Assembly: GCA_049509455.1 (NCBI GenBank)
Contig: JBEKZX010000023.1
Span: 1-22,657 of the forward strand
Source: Conexivisphaerales archaeon
Lineage (GTDB): Archaea > Thermoproteota > Nitrososphaeria > Conexivisphaerales > DTJL01
Length of the DNA: 22,657 bases
Direction: 5' to 3'
In this document: in pieces, positions 6,757 through 22,657 of the stretch
Layout of the letters: every line of letters starts with the position of its first letter
How positions within the stretch are numbered: position 1 is the first letter of the stretch
Made by a program: the position numbers and the translations under genes
Notes under the pieces: generated by a model
The model's input: only the letters and a program-made list of their open reading frames with translations
Databases searched by the model: none
What the model was told of the DNA's origin: nothing

Positions 6757-7956
6757 CTACTTCTTCAGCAGCGCTTCCGTGGACTCCTTCTTAATCCATC
6801 TGATGTTTCCACTGATGTTAATCTGGACCGGGCAGATCTCGTTGCAGGCGTCACACTCGAGGCAGAAGTAGGTCAGAGGCTCGGCGGCGTCCCTTCCTTC
6901 GGTTATCGCCGTCCAGAGCAGGCCCACGGCGGCCGTGTATGTGGAGCCTCCCCACGTGGGGCCGTCGACCGCAAACGTCGGGCACACCAGCTGGCATGCG
7001 CCACACCTTATGCAACGCAGGGCGTCCCACAGCGGCGTCTTCAGAGCTTCGAGCCTGCCGTTGTTCACGAGCACCACGTGCATCTCCTTCGAACCCTGAG
7101 CGGGCCTCACGAGCGTCTTCTCGATGTCCCGAGTGCCGCTGGGGCCCGCGGAAAGGTTGACGTAGGTGGGGACAGGCGAGCCTCCGTAGTACCCCTGCAA
7201 GAGGGCAGTCTTGACCGCGTCCAGCGTCGTGGGGACGACCTTCTCTATCCCGCCGACCACGATGTTCACCGGTGGAAGCGAGCTGGTCAGCCGGATGTTC
7301 GCCTCGTTCTCCACGGTCACCACGGTCCCGTCGGCCGCCGAGATGGCGTTGATCCCTGTTATGCCCACCTGCGCGGCGAGGAGCTTCGTGCGGAGGAACT
7401 CTCTCGCTGCCGCCACCATGGTGGGGAGGTCGTTGGGGTCGAACGTCTTCCCGAACTTCTCCTTGAATATCTCGGCGACCGCTTCGCGAGGGACGTGAAG
7501 GGCCGGCGAAATCATGTGGGCCGGCTTCTCTCCCCTAAACTGAATGATGAGCTCTCCCAGGTCCGTCTCCCATACCTCGTTGCCCCTCTCCTGGAGATAG
7601 TGGCGTATGCCGATCTCTTCGGTCACCATGCTCTTGGACTTGACGACGACCTTGCCCGTGCCCACGAGCTTGTATATGATGTCCAGGGCGTCCTGCTTCG
7701 TGTTGGCGTAGTAGGCGAGGACGCCGTTGGCCTGAAGTGCTTCCATCGCCTGCTTGTAGAGCTCCTCCATGCGCTTGACGTCGTAGTCCTTGACGGACTT
7801 AACCTCCGTGCGAAGCTGGACGACGTCGGCCCTATCTTTGACCTTGTCGTAGTTCTTGACGTAGCTGTCCATTCCTCTCGAGATGCCCGTCCGCATCGCC
7901 TTGTCTCCAAGGGCCTGGTACATCTCCTTCTTGACTTCGAGGAATGTCTTAGCCAT
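6757..7956 (-). CDS. lutB: LutB/LldF/YkgF-like protein (LUD domain plus two 4Fe-4S motifs)
   Basis: KSKSMVTEEIGI, WETDLGELIIQ, HMISPALH, SGTRDIE, CIRCGACQLVCP and CLECDACNEICP motifs; AGGTGAT SD at 7962-7968. Confidence 0.88.
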   Translation of the reverse strand: MAKTFLEVKKEMYQALGDKAMRTGISRGMDSYVKNYDKVKDRADVVQLRTEVKSVKDYDVKRMEELYKQAMEALQANGVLAYYANTKQDALDIIYKLVGTGKVVVKSKSMVTEEIGIRHYLQERGNEVWETDLGELIIQFRGEKPAHMISPALHVPREAVAEIFKEKFGKTFDPNDLPTMVAAAREFLRTKLLAAQVGITGINAISAADGTVVTVENEANIRLTSSLPPVNIVVGGIEKVVPTTLDAVKTALLQGYYGGSPVPTYVNLSAGPSGTRDIEKTLVRPAQGSKEMHVVLVNNGRLEALKTPLWDALRCIRCGACQLVCPTFAVDGPTWGGSTYTAAVGLLWTAITEGRDAAEPLTYFCLECDACNEICPVQINISGNIRWIKKESTEALLKK

Positions 7957-7962
7957 CCTATA

Positions 7963-8925
7963 TCACCTTAGGACCTCCAGCAGGTCGAGTGTCTGAAGCC
8001 CGGTCTTCGCCTCCACCCTCGTAAAGTTCGCCAGACAGATGGGGCAGGCCAGGATGGCCTTGTCGGCCATCTGCTTCAACTCGGCGGCCCTCTTGATGGT
8101 GATTTCGTTCGAGACTTTGGGGGCGATGTTCTCGATGGGCCCGCCGCAGCAGAACGTGAAGTTGCGCGTCCTGATGGGCTCGGCGACCTCGGCGCCCGCC
8201 TGCTCGAGCATGGCCCTGGAGTTCTTCCAGAGGCCCAGTTTCCTCGCCAAGAGGCAAGGATCATGGATAGTGAACTTCTGCCCCTTAAGGGAGTCCTTCG
8301 CGACGGCGACGGCAGGGTCGACCACTTCGAGATAGTGCCTTACGTCTACATCGTAGTCCTTTATGACCTCAGGGTAGAGCAGCTTGAGGGCCACGGTGGA
8401 ATGTGGGTCCATCGTGATGACCTTCCTGACGCCGTGCTTCTTGAACCTCGCATACACCTCACGGGCCTGCTCTTCGAAGACCCAGTCGATGCCCATGTCG
8501 TGGAAGAGCACGCCCGAGTAGAGCTCGTCGGCTCCGAGGTAGCTCACCTCCACGCCGCTCCTCTTCAGGAGGGAAACGACGTTCACGATGATCTGGCTGA
8601 AGCGCTTCTTGTCGCCTGCGGTCATGGCGGCATATGCCGAGCTGACATCGAGGCCTATGCTGCTCAACGCCCGAAACACCCTGAAGCCAGCACCTCCTAC
8701 GCTGGAGGACTCGAGCCTGTCGAGACCTGCCACGAAAGCGTTGATGAAGGGGACCATCTGGTAGAGACCTCCCGTGTAGATTATGGTCCCTGTGTCGGCT
8801 GGGAGGTTGAGCCCTTCCGACCAGGCCGTAAATTCGGATGTCTTGAGGCCTACGGGGTTGGTCGTCTTCTTCCAGTTATCTATGAGCGTGCTGAAAACGT
8901 CTTTCCTGTCCAGCAAGACGGGCAC
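7963..8925 (-). CDS. CCG-domain (Fe-S)-binding protein (LutA/GlpC/HdrD-like)
   Basis: HDPCLLAR, CCGGP and ACPIC cysteine motifs in the C-terminal half. CTTAAA at 8943-8948 fits a TTG start at 8916 better than the GTG at 8925. Confidence 0.85.
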   Translation of the reverse strand: MPVLLDRKDVFSTLIDNWKKTTNPVGLKTSEFTAWSEGLNLPADTGTIIYTGGLYQMVPFINAFVAGLDRLESSSVGGAGFRVFRALSSIGLDVSSAYAAMTAGDKKRFSQIIVNVVSLLKRSGVEVSYLGADELYSGVLFHDMGIDWVFEEQAREVYARFKKHGVRKVITMDPHSTVALKLLYPEVIKDYDVDVRHYLEVVDPAVAVAKDSLKGQKFTIHDPCLLARKLGLWKNSRAMLEQAGAEVAEPIRTRNFTFCCGGPIENIAPKVSNEITIKRAAELKQMADKAILACPICLANFTRVEAKTGLQTLDLLEVLR

Positions 8926-9872: not shown

Positions 9873-10610
9873 CTAGACGACGGGCGGGCCGACATTGAAG
9901 TGCTCAGCCTTCCGGATGAGATCGGCAGGCACCTTCTGGCTCCCCATGTAGCTTGCGAACTTCTTCTTGATGAAGTTCTCCCACAGGTCGCGGTCGAGGT
10001 AGAAGACCCTCGCCCCTCCGAGCTCTGTCTGGAACTCCGGGTACGGCCGGGCCTTGTGAGCCCACTGGAGCCCGATGATCCTGTACCCATTGTAGCTTTC
10101 GAAGCACGCCTCCCACGTCTCAGCTCCGAGGTAGTCGAAGGCATATTCGGCCTTCGCAAAGTAGAGGGCTGGGCCCGAATCCGTCCCTCTCATGAAGCTC
10201 ATGGTGTGCAGAGAGTAGGCTACCTTTTCGTTGAACATCCTGGCGTTGGCAAGACCGGCGAGCTGCCCGTCGATGATGCCTATCAAAGAATATGCGTCCT
10301 TGATCCTGTGAACTTTCTGTGAGAGCACCTCCCCGTACGTCCGGACACCGACGATGTCGTAGAAGTCCTTTGGAATGAACATGTAGGGCTTTATGGCCTC
10401 GAGGACCTGGTCGTATTCGTCTTCCCTGAGAGACCTCACTACCATCTGCTCGCCACCCCTGAGCGAAACGACCTTGGGCTTCCAGGGCCTTTCGGTCATG
10501 ATTTTCATCTCTGGGACGCCGCATCGTAGGACCGGCTCCATGTCCTCCACCTTCAGCTTGTGCTCCAGGTAGGAGACTGGCTCCGGAGGCTGGTAGAATG
10601 ACGAACTCAT
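9873..10610 (-). CDS. Conserved-looking hypothetical protein with probable GNAT-like acyltransferase fold
   Basis: The beta/alpha pattern LIGIIDGQLAGLANARM...SLHTMSFMRGTDSGPALY resembles GNAT motif A (RGxxxG). TTATAT box at 10646-10651. Confidence 0.6.
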   Translation of the reverse strand: MSSSFYQPPEPVSYLEHKLKVEDMEPVLRCGVPEMKIMTERPWKPKVVSLRGGEQMVVRSLREDEYDQVLEAIKPYMFIPKDFYDIVGVRTYGEVLSQKVHRIKDAYSLIGIIDGQLAGLANARMFNEKVAYSLHTMSFMRGTDSGPALYFAKAEYAFDYLGAETWEACFESYNGYRIIGLQWAHKARPYPEFQTELGGARVFYLDRDLWENFIKKKFASYMGSQKVPADLIRKAEHFNVGPPVV

Positions 10611-10659
10611 TTCGGTTGCCCTCTTTGAGCGCCTATTGCGACTTCATATAAGCGTTTCC

Positions 10660-10674
10660 TTGCAGAAAATGCAA
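10660..10674. promoter_or_regulatory. 15-bp inverted repeat TTGCA-GAAAA-TGCAA, candidate Lrp/AsnC-type operator
   Basis: Perfect 5-bp arms around an A-rich 5-nt core, in the divergent intergenic region just upstream of the GNAT gene's BRE/TATA. Confidence 0.45.
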
Positions 10675-10744
10675 CGGAACCGTCCGCCGCCCGAGCACGA
10701 CCTAGATTTATTAAACAGAAAGGCGCTGCACTTTTGTAAATCAG

Positions 10745-11173
10745 TTGACGAAATATTCATCTGACTCCAAACATGGGCCTGGCAGAGTGAAGGTTCTGGT
10801 CACCAAGGTGGGGCTGGACGGCCACGACCGGGGGCTCAAGGTGGTGGCGAAGGGGCTCGCTGACGCTGGCCTCGAAGTCGTCTACTTGGGCGTCCATCAG
10901 ACCGTGGCCAACGTAGTCGCGACCGCCCTGCAGGAAGACGTGGACGTAGTCGCCGTGAGCATCCTGTCGGGTTCCCACATGGAGCTAGCGGCGGACCTAG
11001 TCAAGGCGATGAAAGCCAAGGGACTGGACCGGCCGCTGGTCTTCGGGGGGGTCATCCCCAGGACCGACATAGAACCCTTGAAAAAGTTGGGTATCTCGGC
11101 TGTCTACGGACCAGGTGCTTCGCTGGCGGTCGTGGCCAAGGCCGTCCGCGACGCCGCAAAGGGGGGAAGCTAG
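10745..11173 (+). CDS. Methylmalonyl-CoA mutase small subunit (cobalamin-binding domain)
   Basis: KVGLDGHDRG (DxHxxG), S-I-L-S-G-S-H and VFGGVIP motifs. TTTATTAAA at 10707-10715; TTG start. Confidence 0.93.
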   Translation: MTKYSSDSKHGPGRVKVLVTKVGLDGHDRGLKVVAKGLADAGLEVVYLGVHQTVANVVATALQEDVDVVAVSILSGSHMELAADLVKAMKAKGLDRPLVFGGVIPRTDIEPLKKLGISAVYGPGASLAVVAKAVRDAAKGGS

Positions 11174-11590
11174 TTGCCGATTACCCCTACAAAGGTGGAC
11201 CACGTTGGCATCGCCGTGAGGAGCGTCGATGAAGCGTGCAAGTTCTACGAAGAAACGCTGGGGCTCAAGTTGGTCAAGAAGGAGACGGTGGAGGAGGAGA
11301 AGGTCCGGATCGCCATGTTCAAGGTCGGGGAGAGCTACGTTGAGCTGCTCGAGCCGCTTTCCGCCGATAGCACCATCGCTAGATTCATCGAGAAGCGGGG
11401 CGAAGGCATACACCATATGGCGCTCGGCTACGACGACGTCAAGGAGGCGCATGACTTCTGCAAGATGAAGGGCGCCTTCATGGTCTATCCGGAGCCGGAG
11501 GACCTGAAGGGGGACAGAATCGTCGACTTCGTCCACCCGAAGTCGACGCACGGCGTCCTGCTTGAGATAGTGAAGAGGTACGGCGAATAG
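11174..11590 (+). CDS. mce: Methylmalonyl-CoA epimerase (VOC family)
   Basis: DHVGIAV, ELLEP, RGEGIHHMAL and FVHPKSTHGVLLEIV motifs; sandwiched between the two mutase subunit genes. Confidence 0.93.
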   Translation: MPITPTKVDHVGIAVRSVDEACKFYEETLGLKLVKKETVEEEKVRIAMFKVGESYVELLEPLSADSTIARFIEKRGEGIHHMALGYDDVKEAHDFCKMKGAFMVYPEPEDLKGDRIVDFVHPKSTHGVLLEIVKRYGE

Positions 11591-11594
11591 GCAT

Positions 11595-13292
11595 TTGAAC
11601 AGGACCAAGCGCCCCTCAAAGAAGGAGAAGGCAGGAACGTCCCTGTCGGCCAGGTCGTCGGAATGGGAGTCGGAGGTGCTCAAGCCCTACCTGGCTACAT
11701 CACCCGAGAGGGCCCTTCAGTTCCCATCGGAGGACGGAACACCTGTCCCCAGGCTGTCCACGCCAGCTACCTTAGATGAACACGGCTGGAGCTACGACAA
11801 AGACCTGGGCTTCCCGGGAAGCTTCCCTTTCACCAGAGGCGTCTACCCGACGATGTACCGGGGAAGACCCTGGACCATAAGGCAATACGCGGGATTCGGG
11901 TCGGCCGAGGACACCAACGGACGCTACCGTTACCTGCTCAAGGCCGGCCAGACCGGTCTGAGCGTCGCCTTCGACCTGCCGACGCAGCTAGGACTGGACC
12001 CTGACTGCGAGCTGGCCTACTACGAAGTCGGGAAGGTGGGCGTCTCCGTCTCGACGTTGCAGGAAATGAAGCTGGTCTTCGACTCTATTCCGCTCAGCAA
12101 GGTGTCCACCTCCATGACGATCAACGCCACGGCCATGGAGCTCCTAGCACTCTATGTCGCGGCAGCTCAGGCCCAGTCCATCGAGCCCTCCGCCCTCCGG
12201 GGGACGGTGCAGAACGACATCTTGAAGGAATATATCGCCAGAAACAACTTCATCTATCCTCCAGGGCCGTCGATGCGATACTCCACTGACATCATTATGC
12301 ACTGCGCGAAGGCCATGCCCCAGTGGAATTCGATTAGCATAAGCGGCTACCATTTCGAGGAAGCGGGGGCCACACCGTCGCAAGAAGTGGGCTTCACCCT
12401 AGCTGACGGCATCGAGTACACCAGGACGCTGACCGAGAAGGGGGTCAAGGTCGATGACTTCGCCCCCCGCTTGTCGTTCTTCTTCGCATCGAGGACGAAC
12501 CTCATCGAGCAGGTGGCCAAGTTCAGGGCCGCGCGCAGGATGTGGGCTAAGATAATGAAGGAGCGGTTCGGTGCCAGGGACCCGAAGTCACAGATGCTCA
12601 GATTCCACGCCCAGACGGCGGGCGTGACCATGACGGCGCAGCAGCCAGAGGTCAACATCATTAGGACGACGCTTCAGGCCTTGGCGGCGACCTTGGGCGG
12701 CGCCCAGTCCCTTCACGTCAACTCCTACGACGAGGCCATCTGCCTCCCCACTGAGAAAGCGGTGAAGCTTTCGGTCAGGGTTCAACAGGCTTTGCTGCTG
12801 GAATCAGGGATTGCGGACTCGGTGGACCCCCTGGGCGGTTCGTACCTCCTCGAGGAGCTAACCTCCTCTGTCGAGGAAAAGGCGTGGAAGATAGTGAATG
12901 CGGTCGAGAAGATGGGAGGGATGGTCAAGGCCGTCGAGAGAGGCTTCCCTCAGCAGGAGATAGCGCGCAGCGCCTACGACTACCAGCTCAAAGTGGAGAA
13001 GGGGGTGATACCCGTCATAGGGGTCAATGTCGCGACGGAGGAGGGTGAAGCTCCGTACGAGCCTCTGAAGGTGGACCCTTCCTCTCGCGAAAGGGTGCTG
13101 GCGAGGGTGAAGGAGTACAGAGGGTCCAGAGACCAGACGCTGGTCCGTTCTGCGCTGCGTCAGCTGGAGAAGGCGGCCTCCAACACTGAAGTAAACCTCT
13201 TCCCGCCGGTGCTGGAATGCATCAGATCAAGGTGCACCGTCGGGGAGATTAGCGGGACCCTCAGGGAGACCTGGGGAGAATGGAGACAGTAG
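11595..13292 (+). CDS. Methylmalonyl-CoA mutase large (catalytic) subunit
   Basis: FPFTRGVYPTMYRGRPWTIRQYAGFG, GLSVAFDLPTQ, QNDILKEYIARN, SISGYH and LHVNSYDEA motifs. Confidence 0.95.
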   Translation: MNRTKRPSKKEKAGTSLSARSSEWESEVLKPYLATSPERALQFPSEDGTPVPRLSTPATLDEHGWSYDKDLGFPGSFPFTRGVYPTMYRGRPWTIRQYAGFGSAEDTNGRYRYLLKAGQTGLSVAFDLPTQLGLDPDCELAYYEVGKVGVSVSTLQEMKLVFDSIPLSKVSTSMTINATAMELLALYVAAAQAQSIEPSALRGTVQNDILKEYIARNNFIYPPGPSMRYSTDIIMHCAKAMPQWNSISISGYHFEEAGATPSQEVGFTLADGIEYTRTLTEKGVKVDDFAPRLSFFFASRTNLIEQVAKFRAARRMWAKIMKERFGARDPKSQMLRFHAQTAGVTMTAQQPEVNIIRTTLQALAATLGGAQSLHVNSYDEAICLPTEKAVKLSVRVQQALLLESGIADSVDPLGGSYLLEELTSSVEEKAWKIVNAVEKMGGMVKAVERGFPQQEIARSAYDYQLKVEKGVIPVIGVNVATEEGEAPYEPLKVDPSSRERVLARVKEYRGSRDQTLVRSALRQLEKAASNTEVNLFPPVLECIRSRCTVGEISGTLRETWGEWRQ

Positions 13293-13295
13293 GCG

Positions 13296-14198
13296 TCAAA
13301 ACCCCATTGACCTGCCCAGGTTCGAGGTGAAGGAACCATGGTCCAAATCGTCCAACACGACCGAAGACGCCACTAGCATTCCCACCGACATGTCCAGCCC
13401 GGAGGAATGGCCCCTGGAGACGACATCCTCTAGGCCCAGGAGAAGCCCGTCCCCATCACCCGCGAAGAAAGACGAAACGACAGCCTCCACATCTTCGTCC
13501 ATCAGGTCGTGCTGCATATAGTCGAGCAGCCGGGCGCTGGCCCAGCTGGTCCTCCTTTCCGCTTCGGCGATATCCATGATAAGGGGCGCCCGACGGAAGA
13601 ACCTGTTTCCCGCGTTGTACATGCAGAGGAAGCCGCTGACGAAATCGTCGAAAGAGGGGGTGAAACCCGACCCTATCCCCAGAAGCCCATAAGCAGACTC
13701 CATGAATAGGGATTCATCAAAAGTGGTGGGGCGGACGAAGGCGTCCATGAAGAAGGACCGGTAGCGGTCGAACGCCTTGCCACCGGCGTCCAAGATGCTT
13801 TCCTTCAGGTCGAAGACCACTAGTAGGCACGCAGCAGCCAGAAGCTTCCCCTTTACGGACACGACCTTCTCTTTCTTGGCCTCCTCTGGCCGCAAGGAGT
13901 TAGTGAACCTTCCTTCAGTGATCGCTACCCTGAGCGGGCCGACGGACAGGACGCCTCCGCCGAACTCGGCCCTCTCACCAACCTTGACGGCCTCCTGGAA
14001 ATCCGGCCCCCCGGTTCCGATGTTCACGTTAATCGGACTCCTGACTTCCTTTCCTGTGACATTAATCAGGTCGCCGGACGCTGTGCGGAGGTAGAACGAA
14101 TTGGGGAATACATCCGCTACAGCGGGAGGCTCAACGCTAGTGCTCAGCCACTGAAAGGCATTCTCCCCAGTGCACCAGGCCGACAGGTTCGTGGACAA
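13296..14198 (-). CDS. ylbF: DUF2877 family protein (YlbF/AllH/YahE-like)
   Basis: LLGIGSGFTPSFDDF (GxGxGxTPSxDD) and GHSSGLD motifs; lies directly downstream of the DUF1116 gene. Confidence 0.85.
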   Translation of the reverse strand: MSTNLSAWCTGENAFQWLSTSVEPPAVADVFPNSFYLRTASGDLINVTGKEVRSPINVNIGTGGPDFQEAVKVGERAEFGGGVLSVGPLRVAITEGRFTNSLRPEEAKKEKVVSVKGKLLAAACLLVVFDLKESILDAGGKAFDRYRSFFMDAFVRPTTFDESLFMESAYGLLGIGSGFTPSFDDFVSGFLCMYNAGNRFFRRAPLIMDIAEAERRTSWASARLLDYMQHDLMDEDVEAVVSSFFAGDGDGLLLGLEDVVSRGHSSGLDMSVGMLVASSVVLDDLDHGSFTSNLGRSMGF

Positions 14199-14203
14199 CT
14201 TCC

Positions 14204-15490
14204 TTAGAGGGCGTACCTCTCAGCGTAGCCCTTAAGGGCTTTCTTGAACATCTCCATGGGGAAGACGACGAGCCCGGCGCCTACTTGGCCTACGCCCGCC
14301 TCCTTGCTGGCGACGCCCGTGTTGATGTTGGGGGTGATGCCCGTCTTGACGACCTTCCTGATGTCGACGCCTGTGGGCGTGCCCGCAAAGTCGAGGTTAG
14401 GTATGAGGAAGTACCTGTGCTTGGCGTAAGTGATCTCATACATCTTCTTGGTGATCTCGACTGCGGCCGCGACGCTGCCGCCCACCCATGAGACGATGGC
14501 GGGTGCGGTGGCCATAGCGAAGCCTCCGAAGCCAGCAGTCTCAGTGATAGAGCTGTCTCCGAGGTCGGGATTGGAGTCCTTCGCCGTAAAGCCTGGGAAC
14601 CAGAGGCCGTTCACCATGGGGGCAGGCGCCGTGAACCATTCCTCCCCGAGGCCGCTCACTCTGATGCCGATGTCGGTGCCGTTCCGGGCCATAGTGGTCA
14701 CTATCGTGCTATACTTGATGCCGTGAGCAGCCATCGTCATGGCCTTGGCCGAGGCCATCCCGAGGTTCAGCGCCGTAAAGTTGTTGGCGTTCATGAACAC
14801 CAAAGCCTTCCTGATCTCCTCCCTGTCTCCCCCTGAGGCGACTAGGTATTGAGCGAGCTCCCTGACGAGGAGGCTGGTGGTGGCGACGTATCTGTTGTGG
14901 CAATCGTCTCCCATGGTGAGACCCTGAGCGATCAGGGGCTTGAAGGCGAATCCCGGTTTCTCCTTCTTCAACTCCTTCAAACCTGCGAGGAGCGCAGGCG
15001 CGAAGCTGTCCCGGATATAGGCCAGCCGTTTCAGCACCTCCTCACCGTAGGCTCCATACCGGAGCACCTTCCCTATCCCTTCGTTGAAGTTGCTGTAGGA
15101 CTTCAAGCCGAACTTCCTGTCCGTGACCTCGAAGACCGGCATCGAGGGCGATATGATCCCCGCCATAGGCCCGACGGCGTCGTGGTGGTGACAGGGCTCG
15201 AACTGGACGACCCCGCTCCGGATGAGCTTCTCCGCCTCGGCGTCGTCCTTCGCCCATCCCTCGTAGATGCAAGCCCCCAAGACGGCGCCCTTAACTGGAC
15301 CGGACATCCTCTCCCAAGTTATAGGGGGGCCCGCGTGAAGAAGGAGGTGGTCCCTCATTCCTGGTATGGCCGTGATCGCAGGGACGACGTCCGTCCAGAA
15401 GGGATCGGACTCCATCATCCGATCTACGGCGACCTGATTGGCCTTCTCAACTTCGTCTTTCAAATTGACAGGAGAACTCAACCGTCGCAC
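14204..15490 (-). CDS. ylbE: DUF1116 family protein (YlbE/AllG/YahG-like)
   Basis: LLHAGPPITW, PCHHHDAVGPMAGIISPSMP, NEGIGKVLRYGAY, GDDCHNR and GDSSITET.GFGGFAMA motifs. TTTTATAT box at 15515-15522, 24 nt before the GTG. Confidence 0.92.
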   Translation of the reverse strand: MRRLSSPVNLKDEVEKANQVAVDRMMESDPFWTDVVPAITAIPGMRDHLLLHAGPPITWERMSGPVKGAVLGACIYEGWAKDDAEAEKLIRSGVVQFEPCHHHDAVGPMAGIISPSMPVFEVTDRKFGLKSYSNFNEGIGKVLRYGAYGEEVLKRLAYIRDSFAPALLAGLKELKKEKPGFAFKPLIAQGLTMGDDCHNRYVATTSLLVRELAQYLVASGGDREEIRKALVFMNANNFTALNLGMASAKAMTMAAHGIKYSTIVTTMARNGTDIGIRVSGLGEEWFTAPAPMVNGLWFPGFTAKDSNPDLGDSSITETAGFGGFAMATAPAIVSWVGGSVAAAVEITKKMYEITYAKHRYFLIPNLDFAGTPTGVDIRKVVKTGITPNINTGVASKEAGVGQVGAGLVVFPMEMFKKALKGYAERYAL

Positions 15491-15690
15491 CGAATGAAGA
15501 TTTTCGCCATCTCAATATAAAAGCGTTGCCCAGATGAAGGCGAGACATGACCAAATGACCAATCCTATTTATATGGACCTGCACTAACTGCAGTATCTCT
15601 TCGACCTGACTTTCCGACGAAACGTTCACCGGCCTTGTGCAAACAGTTTAAATGGGAGTCTCAGGCTTAGAGATTCTGCAGAACTTCGCC

Positions 15691-17307
15691 ATGCCATCGG
15701 TGAAGAATGTCGTAAAGCCGAACTTCTACAGGGATTCTCTGCAGCTGATGCAGCTCTCCGAGGACGCGAAGAAGCTCCCCGGCGTTAAGGACGCAGCCGT
15801 CGTCATGGGCACCTCCACCAACAAAGAGCTCCTGGAGCGGCTGGGCCTCCTTGCCAAGGAAGGAAGGGAGGCTTCCGAGAGCGACATCCTCATCGCCGTC
15901 CAAGCAGAAGACGCTGGTCGCCTCGACGGGATCATCAAGGAGGTCGAAGAAATCCTCACCAGGCCGGTTGCCGCGAAGGCAGAGGCCTTCAGCAACATCG
16001 ACGACGCCATGAGCGCCATGCCTGAGGCCAACCTGGCAGTGGTATCGATCCCCGGCGAGTACGCCAGGAACGTCGTGAAGAGATTCCTCGACAGGGGAAT
16101 CCATGTTCATCTCTTCAGCGACCACGTCTCACATGAGGACGAGGCCTTCCTGAAGAAGTACGCCAGCGAAAGGAGGCTCTTCGTGCTGGGGCCCGGCGCC
16201 GGCACCTCCATCATCGGAGGCAAGGCGATAGCGTTCGCCAACGTCGTCAGGAGAGGGAACGTGGGGATTGCCGCGGCCGCTGGAACCGGTCTCCAGGAAG
16301 TCAGCGTCTTGATCAGCCGGGCCGGAGGAGGCGTCTCTGAAGGCCTGGGAATCGGCGGAGGGGATGTGAAGTCCTACGTCGGAGGGATAATGGCCGTGGA
16401 CGCCGTAAAGGCGCTCGAAGCCGACCCGGAGACGAAGGTTGTGTGCCTCGTCAGCAAGCCGCCGAGCCCTGATACTCTCGCCAAGCTCATGTCTTTCGTC
16501 GAGAGCCAGACCAAAAAGAAGTTCGTCATATGCTTCCTCGGGACGAAAAAGTATGAAGTCAGCGAGGCGCAGAAGGACCGGATTTTCTCGACAAAGTCCC
16601 TTCATGTGGCTTCAGCCCAGGCGCTGAGGTTCGCCGATGGGGAGGATGCAGAGGCGATGATCTCCAAGATCTCGATGTCGCGGGACGAGGTCGAAAGGCT
16701 GGCGGCGAAGATCGCGGCGCCGCTCAGGCTCGAGCAGAAGTACGTCCGCGGCCTCTATACCGGCGGGACCCTGACGTTTGAGTCAATGTTGCTGTTCACC
16801 GAACTCTTCGGCGGCATCCACTCCAACGCCCCGCTGGACGAGAGGCTCAAGCTGGCCGACAGTTACAAGAGCGAAGGCCATACCCTGGTGGACCTGGGCG
16901 AAGAAGAGTTCACCTCAGGGCGCGCCCATCCTATGATCGACCCCACGGTGAGGAAGCTCCGTCTGGTCGACGAGGCTAGGGACGGGTCGGTCGCCGTCAT
17001 CATCATGGACGTAGTACTGGGCTACGGATCCAATCGTGACCCCGCGGGCGCGATGATATCCTCCATAAGGGAGGCCAAAGCCATCGCCAGGGCCAAAGGT
17101 AGAGAACTCCCCATTCTTGCCCATGTCTGCGGGACCGACCAAGACCCACAACCACTGAAGGAGCAGGAGGAGAAGCTGGTCAAAGAGGGCGTGGTCGTGC
17201 TCCCTTCCAACGCCCTGATGGCCGTCGTCGCCGGCCTGGCCGCATCCAGGGGCAATGTGAAGGAAGACGTCAAGAGACTGATACTGAAGGAGTACCTGGG
17301 AGTCTAG
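15691..17307 (+). CDS. fdrA: FdrA/AllF/YahF-family acyl-CoA synthetase-like protein
   Basis: YRDSLQLM N-terminus, HLFSDHV, GPGAGTSII, AAAGTGLQEV, GLYTGGTL, GRAHPMIDP and DVVLGYGS motifs. The track's ATG 15652 overlaps the TTTAAA box (15647-15652), so ATG 15691 is preferred. Confidence 0.92.
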   Translation: MPSVKNVVKPNFYRDSLQLMQLSEDAKKLPGVKDAAVVMGTSTNKELLERLGLLAKEGREASESDILIAVQAEDAGRLDGIIKEVEEILTRPVAAKAEAFSNIDDAMSAMPEANLAVVSIPGEYARNVVKRFLDRGIHVHLFSDHVSHEDEAFLKKYASERRLFVLGPGAGTSIIGGKAIAFANVVRRGNVGIAAAAGTGLQEVSVLISRAGGGVSEGLGIGGGDVKSYVGGIMAVDAVKALEADPETKVVCLVSKPPSPDTLAKLMSFVESQTKKKFVICFLGTKKYEVSEAQKDRIFSTKSLHVASAQALRFADGEDAEAMISKISMSRDEVERLAAKIAAPLRLEQKYVRGLYTGGTLTFESMLLFTELFGGIHSNAPLDERLKLADSYKSEGHTLVDLGEEEFTSGRAHPMIDPTVRKLRLVDEARDGSVAVIIMDVVLGYGSNRDPAGAMISSIREAKAIARAKGRELPILAHVCGTDQDPQPLKEQEEKLVKEGVVVLPSNALMAVVAGLAASRGNVKEDVKRLILKEYLGV

Positions 17308-17317
17308 AGTGATTAAG

Positions 17318-17491
17318 ATGTCAGAGGGCGCCAAGAAGCTGTTCCGATCGGAGCTCAAGGTGATCAACGTCGGCCTAGAGATCTTCCGCGACGACCTGGC
17401 TTCTCAATCGGTCAAGGTGGTCCAAGTGAATTTCACACCGCCCGCCAAGATTGAGAAGGAGTATGAAGACATCCTTTCGAAGCTGATGTAG
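17318..17491 (+). CDS. Stand-alone small FdrA/YahG-associated module, about 57 aa
   Basis: LKVINVGLEIFRDDLASQSVKVVQVNFTPPA matches the VINxGL..F..EL......V....W.P module recalled at the C-terminus of E. coli FdrA and the N-terminus of YahG. GAGTGAT SD-like motif before ATG 17318 (alternative GTG at 17309). Confidence 0.8.
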   Translation: MSEGAKKLFRSELKVINVGLEIFRDDLASQSVKVVQVNFTPPAKIEKEYEDILSKLM

Positions 17492-17560
17492 GTCGTGCTC
17501 TGACGAGTCGATCTGCCGACGCGGGGCGTTCAGACTCCGTCCTTAAGCTTCAAGAATACG

Positions 17561-17599
17561 AAAAAAGTTTCGGGGCGCGCGAGATCGCTCCCGCGCGCC
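17561..17599 (-). terminator. Hairpin plus T6 tract between convergent operons
   Basis: GGCGCGCG (17574-17581) pairs with CGCGCGCC (17592-17599). A6 at 17561-17566 gives a U-tract downstream of the 2Fe-2S gene on the minus strand. Confidence 0.6.
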
Positions 17600-17609
17600 T
17601 TTGGCGGAC

Positions 17610-18089
17610 CTACTTCTTGTAGTACTTCCGCGCATCCTTCACGGCTTCGACTATCTGGTAGTACGTCCCGCAGCGGCAGATGCACCCGCTCAGGTACTCC
17701 TTGATCTCTTCGTCTGTGGCATCGGGGTTCGTCTCCAGGAGGTGGTGCGCCGTCACGACAAACGCGGGTGTGCAGAAACCGCACTGTAGAGCACCGTGGT
17801 CGACGAACGACTTCTGCAGGGGCGACAACAGCTCCTCACCCGCGAGGCCCTCGGCTGTGACTATGTCGCTGCCGTCAGCGTCCACCGCCAACACCAAGCA
17901 CGTCTTGACAGGCTTGTTGTTGACGAGCGCGGTGCAGAGGCCGCATTCTCCTCTCCAGCAGGCAGCCTTGACGCTCTTGACTCCCATCCTGTCTCGCAGG
18001 ACGTCCAGGAGGAGCTCGTTGTCCTCGACGGTCGCCGTCCTCTTCGTGCCGTTGACCGTGTATGAAACCTTGTGTGTCAAAACCATCAC
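17610..18089 (-). CDS. Xanthine dehydrogenase/CoxS-family (2Fe-2S) small subunit
   Basis: CWRGECGLC-x11-C and QCGFCTP...CRC motifs. GTG 18089 or ATG 18086, coupled to the FAD subunit stop. Confidence 0.93.
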   Translation of the reverse strand: MMVLTHKVSYTVNGTKRTATVEDNELLLDVLRDRMGVKSVKAACWRGECGLCTALVNNKPVKTCLVLAVDADGSDIVTAEGLAGEELLSPLQKSFVDHGALQCGFCTPAFVVTAHHLLETNPDATDEEIKEYLSGCICRCGTYYQIVEAVKDARKYYKK

Positions 18090-18967
18090 GCCTCCAATAT
18101 CTCCTTCAGGACTGCCGCCGTCTGCACTTTCACCAGATGTTTCCGATACTCCGCGGTTCCAAGCACGTCGGTGACGGTCTCCACGGTCGCGTCCACCACT
18201 TTCAACGCCTCGCCTATGAGCTCTCCCACGGGCTTGTCCTGCCTGAAGACTTCTTCAGCTTGGAAAGCCTCGATGGGCATCAGGTTGATGGCCCCATAGG
18301 CCAACTTGACTCTCCTCCGGGCTGGGTCATTCCTGTTGACGACGAGGGCGCCAACGCTGGCGATGCTGAACTCCGTCCCCTTTGAGAACTTCAGGTAGTG
18401 GCTCACCGTGCCCGGCGCGGGCTCTGGGACGTGAACGGACCTGGCCAGCTCGTTAGGCTGCAACACGGTCTCCGCCGTGCCGATGATGAAGTCCTTGACC
18501 TTCACCCTCCTTTCGCCCTTCAGGGAGGAGATCACGACCTCCGCGTCGAAGAGGATCAGAGGAGGAGGGCCGTCAATCCACGGTATCGCTTCGCAGAGGT
18601 CGCCCAATAGCGTGGAGCGGTTCCTAAGGTTGGGGTCGCTGAGGTTCTTCACTGCGTCGTAGAGCGCAGTGTACTTCTCCTTCAGGAGTGGAAGTGCGAG
18701 CAGCTCGGAAAGGGTTACAGCCGCACCTATGCTCAGGCCCTTCCCCCTTTCGGCCGACAGCTCGCGGAGCTCGGGTATCCCCTTTATATCGAGGACGTAC
18801 TTGCAGTCGATGAGGCGCTCCTTCATGAATGCCAGGAGGCCCACGCCTCCCGCCATGACCTTGGTGTCCTCTCCCTTCCCGTCGAGGAACTCCAAGGCCT
18901 CCTTGAGCGTCTTGGGCTTCACATACTCGAACTCCGGAACAGTGAAGTATGGTGACCCGAAGCTCAA
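18086..18967 (-). CDS. Xanthine dehydrogenase/CoxM-family FAD-binding medium subunit
   Basis: FEYVKPKTLKEAL, AGG loop, GLSIGAAVT and RNRSTLLGD motifs; the TTG start overlaps the large-subunit stop as TTGA. Confidence 0.92.
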   Translation of the reverse strand: MSFGSPYFTVPEFEYVKPKTLKEALEFLDGKGEDTKVMAGGVGLLAFMKERLIDCKYVLDIKGIPELRELSAERGKGLSIGAAVTLSELLALPLLKEKYTALYDAVKNLSDPNLRNRSTLLGDLCEAIPWIDGPPPLILFDAEVVISSLKGERRVKVKDFIIGTAETVLQPNELARSVHVPEPAPGTVSHYLKFSKGTEFSIASVGALVVNRNDPARRRVKLAYGAINLMPIEAFQAEEVFRQDKPVGELIGEALKVVDATVETVTDVLGTAEYRKHLVKVQTAAVLKEILEA

Positions 18968-21357
18968 GATGACACCCCCTTTGCCTTGTACGAAAGGAAC
19001 TTCTCCGTGGCATCCTTGATTAGTTCAGGCCTCTGAGCCTTAATCGCCTGCCAGACGTTCTCTGGGTTCATCGGAAGGGTCTCCATCCTGACGCCTATCG
19101 AGCCGAAGATGGCGTTTGCGATGGCCGGCGCTGTTGCGATCATAACCATCTCACCTATACCGCGGGCTCCCAGGGGTCCATCTGACTGCGGCGTCTCGAC
19201 GCAGTGCTTGTCGATCGTGTCGGCGATATCCTTGCATCGTGGGACGTAATAGTTCGTGAAGTTGGGGTTCATCACCCATCCCTGCTCGTCGAACTTCAGG
19301 CCTTCGTAGAGGGCCGCACCCTGCCCCATTATGAAGCCCCCGTCCATCTGCTCGTCCAACATAAGCTTGTTGATGACCCTTCCCACGTCGTAGACCTGCA
19401 CCCCCTTCAGGATGCGGATTTCACCCGTCAACAGGTCCAGCTCGATCTCCACCCCCGTTCCTCCGAACGTATGGAAGATCGTGGGGACGCCCTGCCCGGT
19501 GTCGGGGTCAAGGTAGGAGTTCAGAATCGACATGAAGGTGCCCTTCCCGACGATGGGCCCTCCGATGGCGTTGCCGTTGGGGTAGGTGTAGCCAAGCACG
19601 AAGTCACTGAGAGGAGCGCTGATCCATGGCCTGCCGCGGACGAACACCTTGCCGTCTCCGAACATGACGTCGTCGGCGGGGACCCGGAACACCTGGAGAG
19701 CGACGTCGGTGATCTGCCTCTTGGCGTCCTTTATCGCGTTCAGAAGGGAGTTGGCGTCAGTGAAAAGCCCCCTGCTCCCCACCGTCTGCCAAGTATACGG
19801 CACATTGTCCGTGCTGCGCAGGTTAGAAATCCTCACCTTCTCCAGCGGGAGGCCGAACTCCTCGGCCGCTATCATGCACAGAGAGGTGGTGGTTCCCTGC
19901 CCGAAGCTGCCCGTCCCCACCATGATATCTATGCTTGTGTCCTCGTTGAACTTGAGTAGAGCCGAAGCGGCCGCGTTAGGAGGCTGCGAAGGCCCCTTCA
20001 GGCTCAATGCGAAGCCCTTTGCCCTGACCTTCCAGGGCTCCTTGGGCTGCTCCTCCTTGTCGAAGTACTTTAGGCCGTCCACCACGGTCCTCAGAACCTT
20101 CTCGGGGTCGCCCGCATCCAGCCTGATCTTCTCGCCGGTGGCAGTCGTCGACTCTCCTGGCTTCGCGATGTTGAGAAGTCTCATCCTGAACGGGTCGAGG
20201 CCCAGTTTCTTGGCGGCGTGGTCGATGATCTGCTCCAGCGCCCAGTGGCTCTCAGGATAGCCGAAGCCCCTCATCGCCGTGGTGCAGACCTTGTTCGTGT
20301 ACACTGCCAGCGAGAGGATGTGGACGTTGTGGATCTCGTAAGACCCTTCGCCAGAGTACCCGGCCGTCCTCGAAACGTTCACCGTGTAGTCCGCGTAACC
20401 ACCGGCGTCCATGACGAACTTGGCGTCGTAAGCCGTGATGGTGCCGTCCTTCTTGAAACCCGCCTTCACATGTGCATAGAAGGCCTCCCTGACGGCGGCT
20501 GAGACGAACTGATCGCGCCTGGAGAGGACGAGCTTGACCGGCCTGTTCCCCGCTTTCTTCGACAGCATGGCGACAAGAGCCTCCCACCCAAGACCCGCCT
20601 TCCCACCGAAGCCGCCACCAACGAACGGTATGCGGATTATGATGTTGTTGACAGGGATGCCAAGAGAAAGGGCCATGAGGTATCTAGTGGCGAAGGCCGA
20701 CTGGGCGCTCGTCCAGACCTCTATGGTGCCGTCCTTGTGGTAGTCCGCGATGACCACCTGGGTCTCCATGAATCCGTGGCTGACATAGGGCATCTTGAAG
20801 TCCTCCTCCAAGACGAGGTCGGCCTCCTTGAAGCCCACGCCGACGTCCCCATGCTTGAGTTCGAAGCTGTTGGCGATGTTCGTCCCGGGGAGAGGCTTGA
20901 AGGCGGGCGAGATCCGGTATTCGCCCAGCTTCTCGTGGAGCAGGGTGGCGTTGGGCTTCAACGCTTCCTCCACCGTGAAGACTGTGGGAAGGAGTTCGTA
21001 TTCCACGTCGACCTTCTCCGCCGCCTCCTCGGCCGATCGCATGGATTCGGCTATCACGGCGGCCACCGGATGCCCGACCCACCTGACCTTGTCGATGGCA
21101 AGGATGTCCCTGTCCCCTACGTAGATGCCAAGCCTGAAGGGGAAGTCCTGGCCGGTGGCTATGGCCACCACCCCAGGTACCTTCGACGCTTCAGAAGTGT
21201 CGATTTTCACGATCTTGGCGTGCGCGACATTGCTAACGACGAGTTTCGCGTAAAGCATCCCGGGCAGCTCCATGTCGAAGGTGTAGACGGCCGTGCCGGT
21301 CACCTTGAGATGGGAGTCAAGCTGCGGAATGGGTTTACCTATGTATCTCGCTGTCAA
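18964..21357 (-). CDS. Xanthine dehydrogenase-family molybdopterin-binding large subunit
   Basis: KVTGTAVYTFD, GGGFGGK, AMRGFG, GQGTTT, TVGSRG, QMDGG and GARGIGE motifs. TTTTTATT box at 21397-21404. Confidence 0.94.
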   Translation of the reverse strand: MTARYIGKPIPQLDSHLKVTGTAVYTFDMELPGMLYAKLVVSNVAHAKIVKIDTSEASKVPGVVAIATGQDFPFRLGIYVGDRDILAIDKVRWVGHPVAAVIAESMRSAEEAAEKVDVEYELLPTVFTVEEALKPNATLLHEKLGEYRISPAFKPLPGTNIANSFELKHGDVGVGFKEADLVLEEDFKMPYVSHGFMETQVVIADYHKDGTIEVWTSAQSAFATRYLMALSLGIPVNNIIIRIPFVGGGFGGKAGLGWEALVAMLSKKAGNRPVKLVLSRRDQFVSAAVREAFYAHVKAGFKKDGTITAYDAKFVMDAGGYADYTVNVSRTAGYSGEGSYEIHNVHILSLAVYTNKVCTTAMRGFGYPESHWALEQIIDHAAKKLGLDPFRMRLLNIAKPGESTTATGEKIRLDAGDPEKVLRTVVDGLKYFDKEEQPKEPWKVRAKGFALSLKGPSQPPNAAASALLKFNEDTSIDIMVGTGSFGQGTTTSLCMIAAEEFGLPLEKVRISNLRSTDNVPYTWQTVGSRGLFTDANSLLNAIKDAKRQITDVALQVFRVPADDVMFGDGKVFVRGRPWISAPLSDFVLGYTYPNGNAIGGPIVGKGTFMSILNSYLDPDTGQGVPTIFHTFGGTGVEIELDLLTGEIRILKGVQVYDVGRVINKLMLDEQMDGGFIMGQGAALYEGLKFDEQGWVMNPNFTNYYVPRCKDIADTIDKHCVETPQSDGPLGARGIGEMVMIATAPAIANAIFGSIGVRMETLPMNPENVWQAIKAQRPELIKDATEKFLSYKAKGVSS

Positions 21358-21505
21358 AAACTTCGCCTAGACTTGGAATGAAACAGTCGCAAACAGAATA
21401 AAAACGTATCGTCCGGGAATGGGTTACGAAGTCAACCGAAGCGAAAACGGGACAAAGCAGTCCGTCTCCCGCGGGGGCTCATGATGATACGCGCCAAGGA
21501 GTTTC

Positions 21506-21943
21506 CTATGAGAGCTTGGTCTGGACGCAGGTAAAGATCTGGTCCACCATCTTCTTCGCGGCACCTTCCACCATCGGAGCGGCGAGGCTGCCTAGAGGGC
21601 CGCTGACCTTGGCCTCGGAAGAGTAATCGATCTGAGACCCACCGGCAGCTGCATCCTTGAGGTCGATCAGGACGTCCGCGTTGAAAGCGCTGGCGGCCCC
21701 CGAGCCTGATATCAATAGCTTAGCATGGTAGTTGACCTTGTCGTTCTCAGCAATCACGCAAGTCACGGCGAACGTACCTCTGATGAAGCCAACGCCGGCC
21801 TTGATTCGGGCCTTTATAGTGTTGCCCTCAATGTGGCTCTCTTGCAGGCCAGGCAGGCACGTCACGATCCTCTCAGGGGTGGAAACGAATTCCCAAGTCT
21901 TGTCCTTGTCCGACGGAACGATGAAACTGCCCTTGATCTGCAT
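21506..21943 (-). CDS. coxG: CoxG/SRPBCC-family protein
   Basis: MQIKGSFIVP...WEFVSTPERIVTCLPG...VGFIRG...VSGPLGSL pattern. The real start is ATG 21943, with CTTAAA at 21978-21983; the track's extension to 22033 crosses the promoter. Confidence 0.88.
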   Translation of the reverse strand: MQIKGSFIVPSDKDKTWEFVSTPERIVTCLPGLQESHIEGNTIKARIKAGVGFIRGTFAVTCVIAENDKVNYHAKLLISGSGAASAFNADVLIDLKDAAAGGSQIDYSSEAKVSGPLGSLAAPMVEGAAKKMVDQIFTCVQTKLS

Positions 21944-22020
21944 GAGATATCGGTCTCTCGAGAGAAATATTTCTGTATTTAAGCCTTCCCGCGACCTGAA
22001 GCGGGGAGAGCGTCTCGCAC

Positions 22021-22071
22021 CTAGGGGGGTCAAGAAAGCCCCTAGCTGACGAATTCAGAAACGAGAAAAAA
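22021..22071 (-). terminator. Oligo-T tract and hairpin downstream of the cyclase gene
   Basis: A6 at 22066-22071 (T6 on the minus strand) about 10 nt after the stop, followed by a CTAGGGG/CCCCTAG stem at 22021-22045. Confidence 0.45.
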
Positions 22072-22081
22072 CCGATGTAGT

Positions 22082-22657
22082 CTACTTGCTGTAGTCGAAG
22101 GCAACTACTCTTGCGAAGGCAGCCTCTCCGCCCTTGAACAGGAAGGGGAAGCAGCCGATGGTAGTACGGACTGCCTTCTTTCCACCCAAGACTTCCTCTA
22201 TCTGGCCTCCCAGGTTCTCCATATGTATGCAGTCCCGCGGGAACAGGATGTTGTGTGTCACCTGGTAGTCCTCCGGAGGGAAGAGCTTGGCCAGGTTCTG
22301 CTCGCCGAACTTCGCTGCGGCAGCCGCCCTGACCTTATCGCTCACTCTTGGCAGGAACCTTCCAATCGGGAGGTTCATCGGGTGGTCAGACGACACGGCG
22401 TCCAGTCCCCAGATGTGTATCTTCTTCCTGAGGAGGTATTCGCAGAAGGCCCTCGTCGGGCCGGGGTGCATGTGGATGTAGCGCTCTTCGTCAGCTGTGC
22501 CTTCGGGCTTCGGCTTCTGATACCAGGCGTACTTGCTCCAACCGGTGTACAGAACAAGGATGTCGCCATCCTTGACTCCACCGGCCGCCTTGGCGTTCTT
22601 CTCGACGATTTCCTCGGTGTAGATTCCGAGGTCACCCACTTCGCTGACGTCGACGAT
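22082..22657 (-). CDS. Cyclase family (kynurenine formamidase-like) metal-dependent amidohydrolase, 5'-partial
   Basis: The frame is open to the window edge (IVDVSEVGDLG...). GDILVLYTGW, HPGP, GLDAVSSDHP, H..L, IHMENL and FPF..KGGEAAFARVVA motifs. Confidence 0.88.
   Translation of the reverse strand: MVDVSEVGDLGIYTEEIVEKNAKAAGGVKDGDILVLYTGWSKYAWYQKPKPEGTADEERYIHMHPGPTRAFCEYLLRKKIHIWGLDAVSSDHPMNLPIGRFLPRVSDKVRAAAAAKFGEQNLAKLFPPEDYQVTHNILFPRDCIHMENLGGQIEEVLGGKKAVRTTIGCFPFLFKGGEAAFARVVAFDYSK

Follow-up and report, generated by a model that had tools for sequence, protein, structure and literature searches.

A molybdenum hydroxylase, a cyclase-family hydrolase and an AllFGH-like complex share a gene cluster in a Conexivisphaerales archaeon: a candidate for oxidative nucleobase catabolism

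Results

We analyzed a 22,657-nucleotide stretch of DNA (the window) from a Conexivisphaerales archaeon (GenBank assembly GCA_049509455.1, contig JBEKZX010000023.1), in which genes encoding homologues of the three subunits of E. coli oxamate carbamoyltransferase (OXTCase) adjoin genes encoding a molybdenum hydroxylase, a CoxG protein and a cyclase-family metal hydrolase. The window is the entire contig C57 (22,657 bp) of a metagenome-assembled genome (MAG) of 2.05 Mb that is 95.5% complete; the source is an archaeon, and its nearest relatives are peat and soil MAGs labelled Conexivisphaerales or Nitrososphaerota. The contig end falls within the cyclase gene, and the archaeon's own genome gives no sequence to its right. 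A first-pass annotation of this DNA had described nine contiguous genes, all of which we recovered, by their Pfam matches or, for a small module, as a 60-residue open reading frame (ORF). The ORF layout indicates three transcription units: allG-allH, the fdrA-sm60 unit that diverges from it, and a convergent cyclase-coxG-coxLMS unit in which the small-subunit gene overlaps the FAD-subunit gene by 4 nt, as does the FAD-subunit gene the large-subunit gene. The cluster and its left flank contain the following features.

9873..10610, minus strand: orf245, conserved GNAT-fold protein; outside the coordinates of the first-pass annotation
10745..11173, plus strand: methylmalonyl-CoA mutase (MCM) B12-binding subunit; Pfam B12-binding; syntenic in relatives within the family
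11174..11590, plus strand: glyoxalase-fold protein, methylmalonyl-CoA epimerase candidate; Pfam Glyoxalase and Glyoxalase_4
11595..13292, plus strand: MCM catalytic subunit; Pfam MM_CoA_mutase, 689 bits; convergent with AllH
13296..14198, minus strand: AllH-like subunit (DUF2877); Pfam AllH, 56.9 bits
14204..15490, minus strand: AllG-like subunit (DUF1116); Pfam AllG, 288 bits
15491..15651, no strand: divergent intergenic region between allG-allH and fdrA-sm60, from the ORF coordinates
15652..17307, plus strand: FdrA/AllF-like subunit with a succinyl-CoA-synthetase-alpha-like fold; Pfam CoA_binding and Ligase_CoA
17309..17491, plus strand: sm60, putative stand-alone 60-residue tether module; ORF conserved in archaea and bacteria
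17610..18089, minus strand: Mo-hydroxylase small subunit, two [2Fe-2S] clusters; Pfam Fer2 and Fer2_2
18086..18967, minus strand: Mo-hydroxylase FAD subunit; Pfam FAD_binding_5 and CO_deh_flav_C
18964..21357, minus strand: Mo-hydroxylase molybdopterin subunit, xanthine dehydrogenase (XDH) family; Pfam Ald_Xan_dh_C and MoCoBD_1/2
21506..22033, minus strand: CoxG/SRPBCC protein, start codon uncertain; Pfam COXG, 97 bits, from residue 35
22082..22657, minus strand: cyclase-family metal hydrolase, C-terminal 191 residues; Pfam Cyclase; cut by the contig end

Do the FdrA/AllG/AllH block and the Mo-hydroxylase/CoxG/cyclase block belong together? The order MCM / AllH-AllG / FdrA-sm60 / CoxSML-(CoxG)-cyclase is kept in four genera of the archaeon's own family. 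In a genome from another family (G015) these genes are rearranged, an NCS1 permease gene lies between CoxL and FdrA, and the cluster adjoins genes encoding a carboxyltransferase, PrpD and a methylisocitrate-lyase-like protein. An alignment search of a species-representative genome collection returned at least 568 stretches related to the cyclase; the best 80 of these are 58-100% identical to it, and we took neighborhoods from these 80 loci. Hosts of the cyclase orthologues include Nitrososphaeria, Bathyarchaeia, Hadarchaeales, Chloroflexota, Gemmatimonadota, KSB1, Calditrichia and Myxococcota, among others. Among the cyclase-centered loci of at least 12 kb (n = 53), CoxL, CoxM and CoxS are present in 32, FdrA in 20 and AllG in 17; CoxG is found in 20 cyclase-centered loci, and MCM adjoins the cluster in nine, one of them bacterial (L103). 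The genes occur in several orders, from the archaeal layout to a same-strand arrangement in Chloroflexi (CoxG-XdhC-M-S-amidase-FdrA-AllG-cyclase-L). The gene set is not peculiar to archaea and is widespread in bacteria.

Queries with AllG gave a similar picture. AllG relatives that are at least 60% identical all come from archaeal or archaea-like MAGs, and in nearly all of those with sufficient flanking sequence the neighbors of sm60-FdrA/AllG-AllH include CoxLMS orthologues (59-66% identical). In an AllG tree the window's sequence lies within an archaeal clade of 33 sequences with 100% support, 24 of which have CoxL within 12 kb; the hydroxylase-linked AllG proteins of Chloroflexi and Bacillota form a separate clade, and one from Hadarchaeales a third. 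Across 61 related genomes, which are not independent and count in effect as three positive lineages with a single contrast inside a family (genus g8 versus genus g6), AllG is present in 26, the cyclase orthologue in 20 and the CoxL orthologue in 20. Whenever one of these genomes encodes the cyclase or CoxL orthologue, AllG is present as well, and neither orthologue was found in any of the 35 AllG-negative genomes. In family f4 AllG, cyclase and CoxL are co-present, yet on separate contigs. Because the two blocks stay linked in a variety of gene orders, in archaea as well as bacteria, and share a single phyletic pattern, we conclude with high confidence that they are functionally coupled. The first-pass annotation had proposed that they act as one unit, unless they failed to co-occur in other genomes; synteny, the cyclase and AllG queries and the phyletic pattern bear this out.

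What reaction might the trio catalyze? All three OXTCase subunit families (FdrA/AllF, AllG and AllH) are matched over their Pfam cut-offs. The AllG-like protein shares 47% identity with E. coli YlbE/AllG along its full length and matches PDB entry 3clq (E 9e-118), and the FdrA-like protein is 35% identical to E. coli FdrA and matches 3dmy (E 1e-70). The alignment of the AllH-like protein with E. coli YlbF is limited to the GxGxTPSxDD motif. In E. coli, AllFGH interconverts oxalurate plus phosphate with oxamate plus carbamoyl phosphate, and a carbamate kinase, AllK, is co-transcribed (Kim & Kim 2024, PMC11326118); this sole characterized member of the family makes carbamoyl phosphate without CoA (PMC11326118). 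The chemistry that the two systems share is likely, by analogy, the phosphorolysis of an N-acylurea to carbamoyl phosphate. However, the partners of the archaeal trio are the Mo hydroxylase, CoxG and the cyclase-family hydrolase, and it lacks allECD neighbors. In a 31-row AllG tree, E. coli AllG falls outside a group of 25 that holds all of the hydroxylase-linked clades, on a branch with a Shimodaira-Hasegawa-like approximate likelihood ratio (SH-aLRT) support of only 81. The sequence comparisons suggest that the trio resembles OXTCase in its likely action, in a context that is not that of allantoin; orthology with E. coli AllFGH is unproven. A 2025 paper reports allFGHK in MAGs of nitrifiers and of Nitrososphaerales other than ammonia-oxidizing archaea, and reads these genes as serving oxalurate degradation (PMC12625717).

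A canonical allantoin pathway would offer the simplest role for such a trio, which would then be an ordinary OXTCase whose partners are encoded elsewhere in the genome, with the hydroxylase and cyclase being unrelated to it (a form II CO dehydrogenase, for instance, or an aldehyde oxidoreductase). The genome contains many XDH-family paralogues, an Ldh_2 (AllD-family) gene on contig C75, which is the only other allantoin-type candidate, and two cyclic amidohydrolase genes on contig C2, one of which, at 354.3 bits, falls just short of the allantoinase cut-off of 357.85. However, that gene passes the dihydroorotase model instead, no other gene in the genome comes closer to the allantoinase cut-off, and AllC was not found in this 95.5%-complete genome; a complete allantoin pathway elsewhere in the genome is not supported. 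Furthermore, linkage of the two blocks survives rearrangement in different phyla, their phyletic pattern is a common one, and the large subunit lacks the active-site loop of CO dehydrogenase. Linkage and co-distribution thus largely refute an allantoin role, which we consider very improbable. The first-pass annotation had seen no allantoin-pathway gene and no carbamate kinase in the window, and Pfam and family searches of the window likewise revealed none; its concern that a canonical allantoin route might fully explain the trio found no support when the whole genome was searched.

The small module, sm60, aligns with residues 511-554 of E. coli FdrA (36% identity), and the tail that is part of FdrA in E. 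coli is thus a separate 60-residue gene here. The module stands alone in the window's archaeal clade, is the N-terminal portion of AllG in both family f4 and Hadesarchaea (proteins of 462-472 residues; L042:5560-6948 and L116:16380-17771), and forms the C-terminus of FdrA in Chloroflexi (the FdrA frames of L081, L104 and L110). This three-form distribution is a Rosetta-stone pattern predictive of an FdrA-AllG contact. A structural model of the sm60-AllG complex scored 0.87, and the best of three controls scored 0.00. In benchmarks, 58 of 80 solved complexes attain the mark, as do 2 of 110 mismatched pairs; these rates are only roughly valid here, where our own alignments were used. The modeling runs share at least 83% of contacts, partner pLDDT (predicted local distance difference test) is at least 51, and in the model the C-terminal helix of sm60 (residues 48-60) lies against AllG at both its N-terminal and its C-terminal parts. 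By homology, sm60 is a detached C-terminal FdrA tail, a mobile FdrA/AllG module, and we read it as a tether between FdrA and AllG.

In E. coli a carbamate kinase gene accompanies the trio. The window contains no carbamate kinase gene, as the first-pass annotation had stated, and no allK-type operon; the kinase is encoded elsewhere in the genome and, in related archaea, within the cluster. The genome's only arcC-grade carbamate kinase, a bona fide enzyme that passes the arcC equivalog cut-off, is encoded on contig C108, unlinked to the trio. Four of the AllG-centered loci (L153, L156, L157 and L161) carry a carbamate kinase gene. In several Nitrososphaerales loci such a gene lies inside the cluster, which supports carbamoyl phosphate as a product, and in Bordetella-type loci a carbamate kinase gene lies beside FdrA/AllG. 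On C108 (46926-49560) the kinase gene is accompanied by an ornithine/N-acetylornithine-carbamoyltransferase-like gene and by a gene for a pyridoxal-phosphate (PALP) enzyme cut by the contig end; this layout is reminiscent of ygeW-ygeX-yqeA in the anaerobic urate cluster, but may belong to arginine metabolism.

The hydroxylase has the three-subunit [2Fe-2S]/FAD/molybdenum-cofactor architecture of XDH-family enzymes such as xanthine dehydrogenase, quinoline 2-oxidoreductase, 4-hydroxybenzoyl-CoA reductase and CoxSML. Its large subunit stands at roughly equal distance from 4-hydroxybenzoyl-CoA reductase, CO dehydrogenase, xanthine oxidase and quinoline oxidoreductase, the best match being 1rm6 (E 9e-80). 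The Glu of its GIGE motif aligns with the conserved catalytic Glu of 4-hydroxybenzoyl-CoA reductase, CO dehydrogenase and xanthine oxidase. In the alignment, MRGFG stands where xanthine oxidase has its FRGFGG motif, and the Arg, which we take to be Arg880 in bovine numbering, is kept. However, the residue following GGGFGGK is Ala where xanthine oxidase has Glu (presumably Glu802, bovine numbering). The large subunit reaches no NCBIfam equivalog cut-off; the best model, XdhA_XDHase, scores 453 bits against a cut-off of 780, and with Ala in place of the Glu802-type residue the protein does not qualify as xanthine dehydrogenase proper. We also rejected CO dehydrogenase: compared with the CO dehydrogenase structure 8uem, the sequence TTAMRGFGYPE replaces the AYxCSFR (form I) or AYRGAGR (form II) loop, and the TIGR02416 score is 274 bits against 991. 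The CoxSML-like enzyme is therefore predicted to be an XDH-family hydroxylase and not a CO dehydrogenase; its specificity is not fixed by sequence.

The genome encodes about eleven XDH-family large-subunit paralogues, 24-31% identical to that of the window, on contigs C2, C44, C45, C49, C56, C64, C97, C98 and C119. Contig C2 carries two XDH-family sets near the two cyclic amidohydrolase genes, a family III CoA-transferase gene and an ADP-forming acyl-CoA synthetase gene. Six Bathyarchaeia loci (L061, L062, L065, L068, L070 and L071) have two tandem CoxLMS sets after the cyclase, about 64% and 49% identical to those of the window, and upstream lie BioY, a biotin ligase, a ThiS-like gene and a carboxyltransferase gene.

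The cyclase fragment, which scores above the Pfam cut-off, is 98% identical to residues 87-277 of an orthologue from the same genus. That protein and four further full-length orthologues all carry the HxGTHxDxPxH metal motif unchanged; in the window's own gene the motif lies past the contig end. The missing N-terminus was not found on the other contigs of the genome, where the only other PF04199 match, on contig C1, is a paralogue with 27% identity. The cyclase shares the Pfam Cyclase (PF04199) fold with KynB and isatin hydrolase (PDB 4co9 and 4j0n), as well as, in the full-length orthologue, the metal motif. However, the similarity is weak (E 6e-14) and confined to the N-terminal third, and the score for the arylformamidase equivalog is far from its cut-off (61 versus 223 bits). 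Compared with those enzymes, the cyclase orthologues form an unusually conserved group, with about 60% identity between archaea and bacteria. Isatin hydrolase demonstrates that the cyclase family is able to open a cyclic amide. In a number of loci (L069 and L072-L078 from other Nitrososphaeria, and family f4 relatives) the cyclase orthologue has no neighboring hydroxylase and lies beside a thiolase plus a DUF35/OB-fold pair.

Which substrate do the neighbors in other genomes point to? We clustered all ORFs of the 80 cyclase-centered loci and annotated the commonest families, for which the best-model names given here are all below curated cut-offs. An amidase-signature amidase is encoded in 25 loci, always co-directionally. 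Recurrent genes encode an AMP ligase (best model, malonyl-CoA synthase), a family III CoA-transferase, an NCS2 permease (best model, uracil permease), an amidohydrolase (best model, cytosine deaminase) and a carboxyltransferase (best model, methylmalonyl-CoA decarboxylase alpha). NCS1 permeases, BMP-type ABC transporters, MCM, BioY/BirA (biotin ligase) and the molybdenum-cofactor genes XdhC, MoeA and MobA are also recurrent. In a genome of the same genus as our archaeon, genes for an NCS1 nucleobase permease and a carboxyltransferase follow the cyclase. These neighbors suggest a nucleobase substrate with ring carbons that exit as a C3 or C4 dicarboxyl-CoA, for which the simplest fit is an oxidative pyrimidine route. 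By this analogy we regard it as an evenly balanced proposition that the cluster serves oxidative nucleobase catabolism, most likely of uracil and/or thymine.

The same coupled cluster could instead act on another N-heterocycle, such as a purine-derived or imidazolidine-type ureide that yields oxalurate itself once hydroxylated and ring-opened; the trio would then be a true OXTCase and the carbon product oxamate or oxalate. This would agree with the 47% identity of AllG to a characterized E. coli subunit, with the allantoin permeases that are the best equivalogs of the NCS1 permease (below cut-off), with CoA:oxalate CoA-transferase as the second-best match of the family III CoA-transferase, and with a hydroxylase whose substrate nothing in the sequence fixes. 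However, MCM, the mmdA-like carboxyltransferase, BioY/BirA and the malonyl-CoA-synthase-like ligase fit C3/C4 dicarboxylates and not oxalate, the uracil-permease-like and cytosine-deaminase-like neighbors favor pyrimidines, and E. coli AllG lies outside the hydroxylase-linked group, albeit with weak support. We consider a heterocycle of this kind unlikely, yet it is the alternative to which we give the most weight.

To the left of the trio lie orf245 and the MCM genes. Orf245 has no Pfam or NCBIfam match, and its AlphaFold model (pLDDT 84.9) has as its best PDB matches only GNAT acyltransferases. It belongs to unnamed sequence clusters of Nitrososphaerota and Chloroflexota. In Bathyarchaeia it is 80-84% identical and lies directly after AllH; AllG is only about 66% identical between the same groups. 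In other archaea its relatives lie beside the cyclase or CoxS, always in or next to the cluster, and Nitrososphaerales clusters contain two copies. Orf245 is probably a cluster member, and since it would then be part of the system, the cluster may reach left to 9873 and span 9873-22657 and beyond, with the MCM genes in between. The position of the glyoxalase-fold gene between the two mutase genes marks it as a candidate methylmalonyl-CoA epimerase. Cluster c40 of the neighborhood survey, a 23S rRNA-IVP family protein encoded between AllG and the cyclase in Chloroflexi, is unrelated to orf245.

These genes invite a reading in which the trio performs a CoA- or phosphate-dependent acyl transfer tied to MCM, for example producing (methyl)malonyl-CoA or its phosphate from the ring-opened product with the release of urea. 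FdrA has the CoA-binding and ligase domains of succinyl-CoA synthetase alpha, MCM genes lie directly beside AllH family-wide and turn up again in other loci, a gene with a fold that uses acyl-CoA (GNAT) travels with AllH, and this genome has no amidase-signature orthologue and no ligase in the cluster. However, the only characterized relative of the trio dispenses with CoA (PMC11326118), carbamate kinase genes lie within several Nitrososphaerales clusters and beside FdrA/AllG in Bordetella-type loci, and the adjacency of MCM may be mere synteny. Acyl transfer by the trio thus appears distinctly improbable, though not as improbable as an allantoin role.

The rest of the window encodes an SMC-like ATPase, a PfkB kinase, EamA halves, LutA/LutB-like proteins and a nucleotidyltransferase. 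Two overlapping minus-strand ORFs (5886-6296 and 6215-6709) with one EamA domain each may stem from a frameshift or split in a drug/metabolite-transporter gene, or from an error in the assembly. At 6757-8925 (minus strand) a LutB-like (LUD plus 4Fe-4S) and LutA-like (CCG) pair, syntenic with the cluster throughout the family, is probably an unrelated lactate utilization system.

Discussion

How might the cluster degrade a pyrimidine? We propose the following order of events for the oxidative catabolism of uracil and/or thymine. First, a nucleobase permease would import the base; in the same-genus genome an NCS1 permease gene lies beyond the point that corresponds to our contig end. Second, the three-subunit XDH-family Mo hydroxylase, together with CoxG, would hydroxylate C6 to yield (5-methyl)barbiturate. 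Third, the cyclase-family metal hydrolase would open the ring to give ureido(methyl)malonate. Ureidomalonate is an N-acylurea like oxalurate, which makes an AllFGH-type phosphorolysis chemically plausible. Fourth, FdrA-sm60-AllG-AllH would use phosphate to split this N-acylurea into carbamoyl phosphate and an amide or acid. Fifth, the carbamate kinase encoded on C108 would convert carbamoyl phosphate to ATP, NH3 and CO2. Sixth, the carbon skeleton would exit as (methyl)malonyl-CoA by way of the B12 mutase and epimerase encoded next to the trio, together with a carboxyltransferase. The first-pass annotation had suggested hydroxylation, cyclase ring opening and carbamoyl transfer on a substrate other than allantoin, and this order fits the recurrent neighbors; the substrate, the enzyme roles, the phosphorolysis and the fate of the carbon are what we infer, the substrate by analogy with neighbors in other genomes.

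An oxidative pyrimidine pathway is known from Rhodococcus and Mycobacterium, where, in the account of Soong et al. (2001, 2002) as cited in PMC7662398, it consists of uracil/thymine dehydrogenase (EC 1.17.99.4), barbiturase (EC 3.5.2.1) and ureidomalonase. The proposed archaeal route would follow the same order, with hydroxylation, hydrolytic opening and the cleavage of ureidomalonate to a C3 dicarboxylate. However, the ring opener would be a cyclase-family (KynB/isatin hydrolase-like) enzyme and not a barbiturase of the AtzD/TrzD family, and the last step would be phosphorolytic, yielding carbamoyl phosphate, whereas there it is hydrolytic and yields urea. PF09663, the AtzD/TrzD barbiturase family, has no match in the genome, but the same search was silent in all 14 control genomes too, so that this negative carries no information. 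We know of no gene assigned to uracil dehydrogenase or ureidomalonase.

Several observations weigh against the pyrimidine proposal or against the unity of the cluster on which it builds. The NCS1 gene was not found in the archaeon's own assembly and is presumed lost at the contig break. No orthologue of the amidase-signature amidase is present in the window or the genome, though it accompanies the cluster in many bacteria, so that a malonamate-type product would have no obvious hydrolase here. The window contains no AMP ligase or CoA-transferase, and the names that point to pyrimidines are those of best families matched under curated cut-offs. The C108 kinase is unlinked, and because an ornithine-carbamoyltransferase-like gene lies beside it, its role may be in arginine metabolism. 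In family f4, FdrA and AllG are located among housekeeping genes, and neither tblastn nor Pfam searches found AllH beside them. Finally, with about eleven XDH-family paralogue sets in the genome, a hydroxylase adjoining any given gene is less surprising here.

In our view the unity of the gene set is well supported and its substrate unproven. Somewhat short of even, and thus tentatively, we propose that it represents an undescribed, ATP-yielding form of oxidative pyrimidine breakdown, common to many uncultured archaea and bacteria, in which the XDH-family enzyme is the orphan uracil/thymine dehydrogenase, the cyclase-family hydrolase replaces barbiturase, a four-part FdrA-tether-AllG-AllH complex phosphorolyzes ureido(methyl)malonate, and the carbon passes to (methyl)malonyl-CoA and the B12 mutase. 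A literature search found no paper on the hydroxylase-cyclase-AllFGH cluster or on a uracil dehydrogenase gene, within a coverage outside of which most subscription journals lie.

Finally, we consider what the pyrimidine proposal would mean if it is true. It would assign genes to orphan steps of pyrimidine catabolism, and the recently discovered AllFGH class of enzymes would reach beyond allantoin to a second N-acylurea. The mobile 60-residue tether offers a handle for reconstituting the multi-subunit enzyme. The proposal would also correct the CO dehydrogenase label that is commonly given to such CoxSML genes in Thaumarchaeota-related, Bathyarchaeia and Hadarchaeales genomes. More broadly, heterotrophic archaea of peat and the subsurface, as well as many anaerobic bacteria, would gain nitrogen and ATP from the nucleobases of dead cells.

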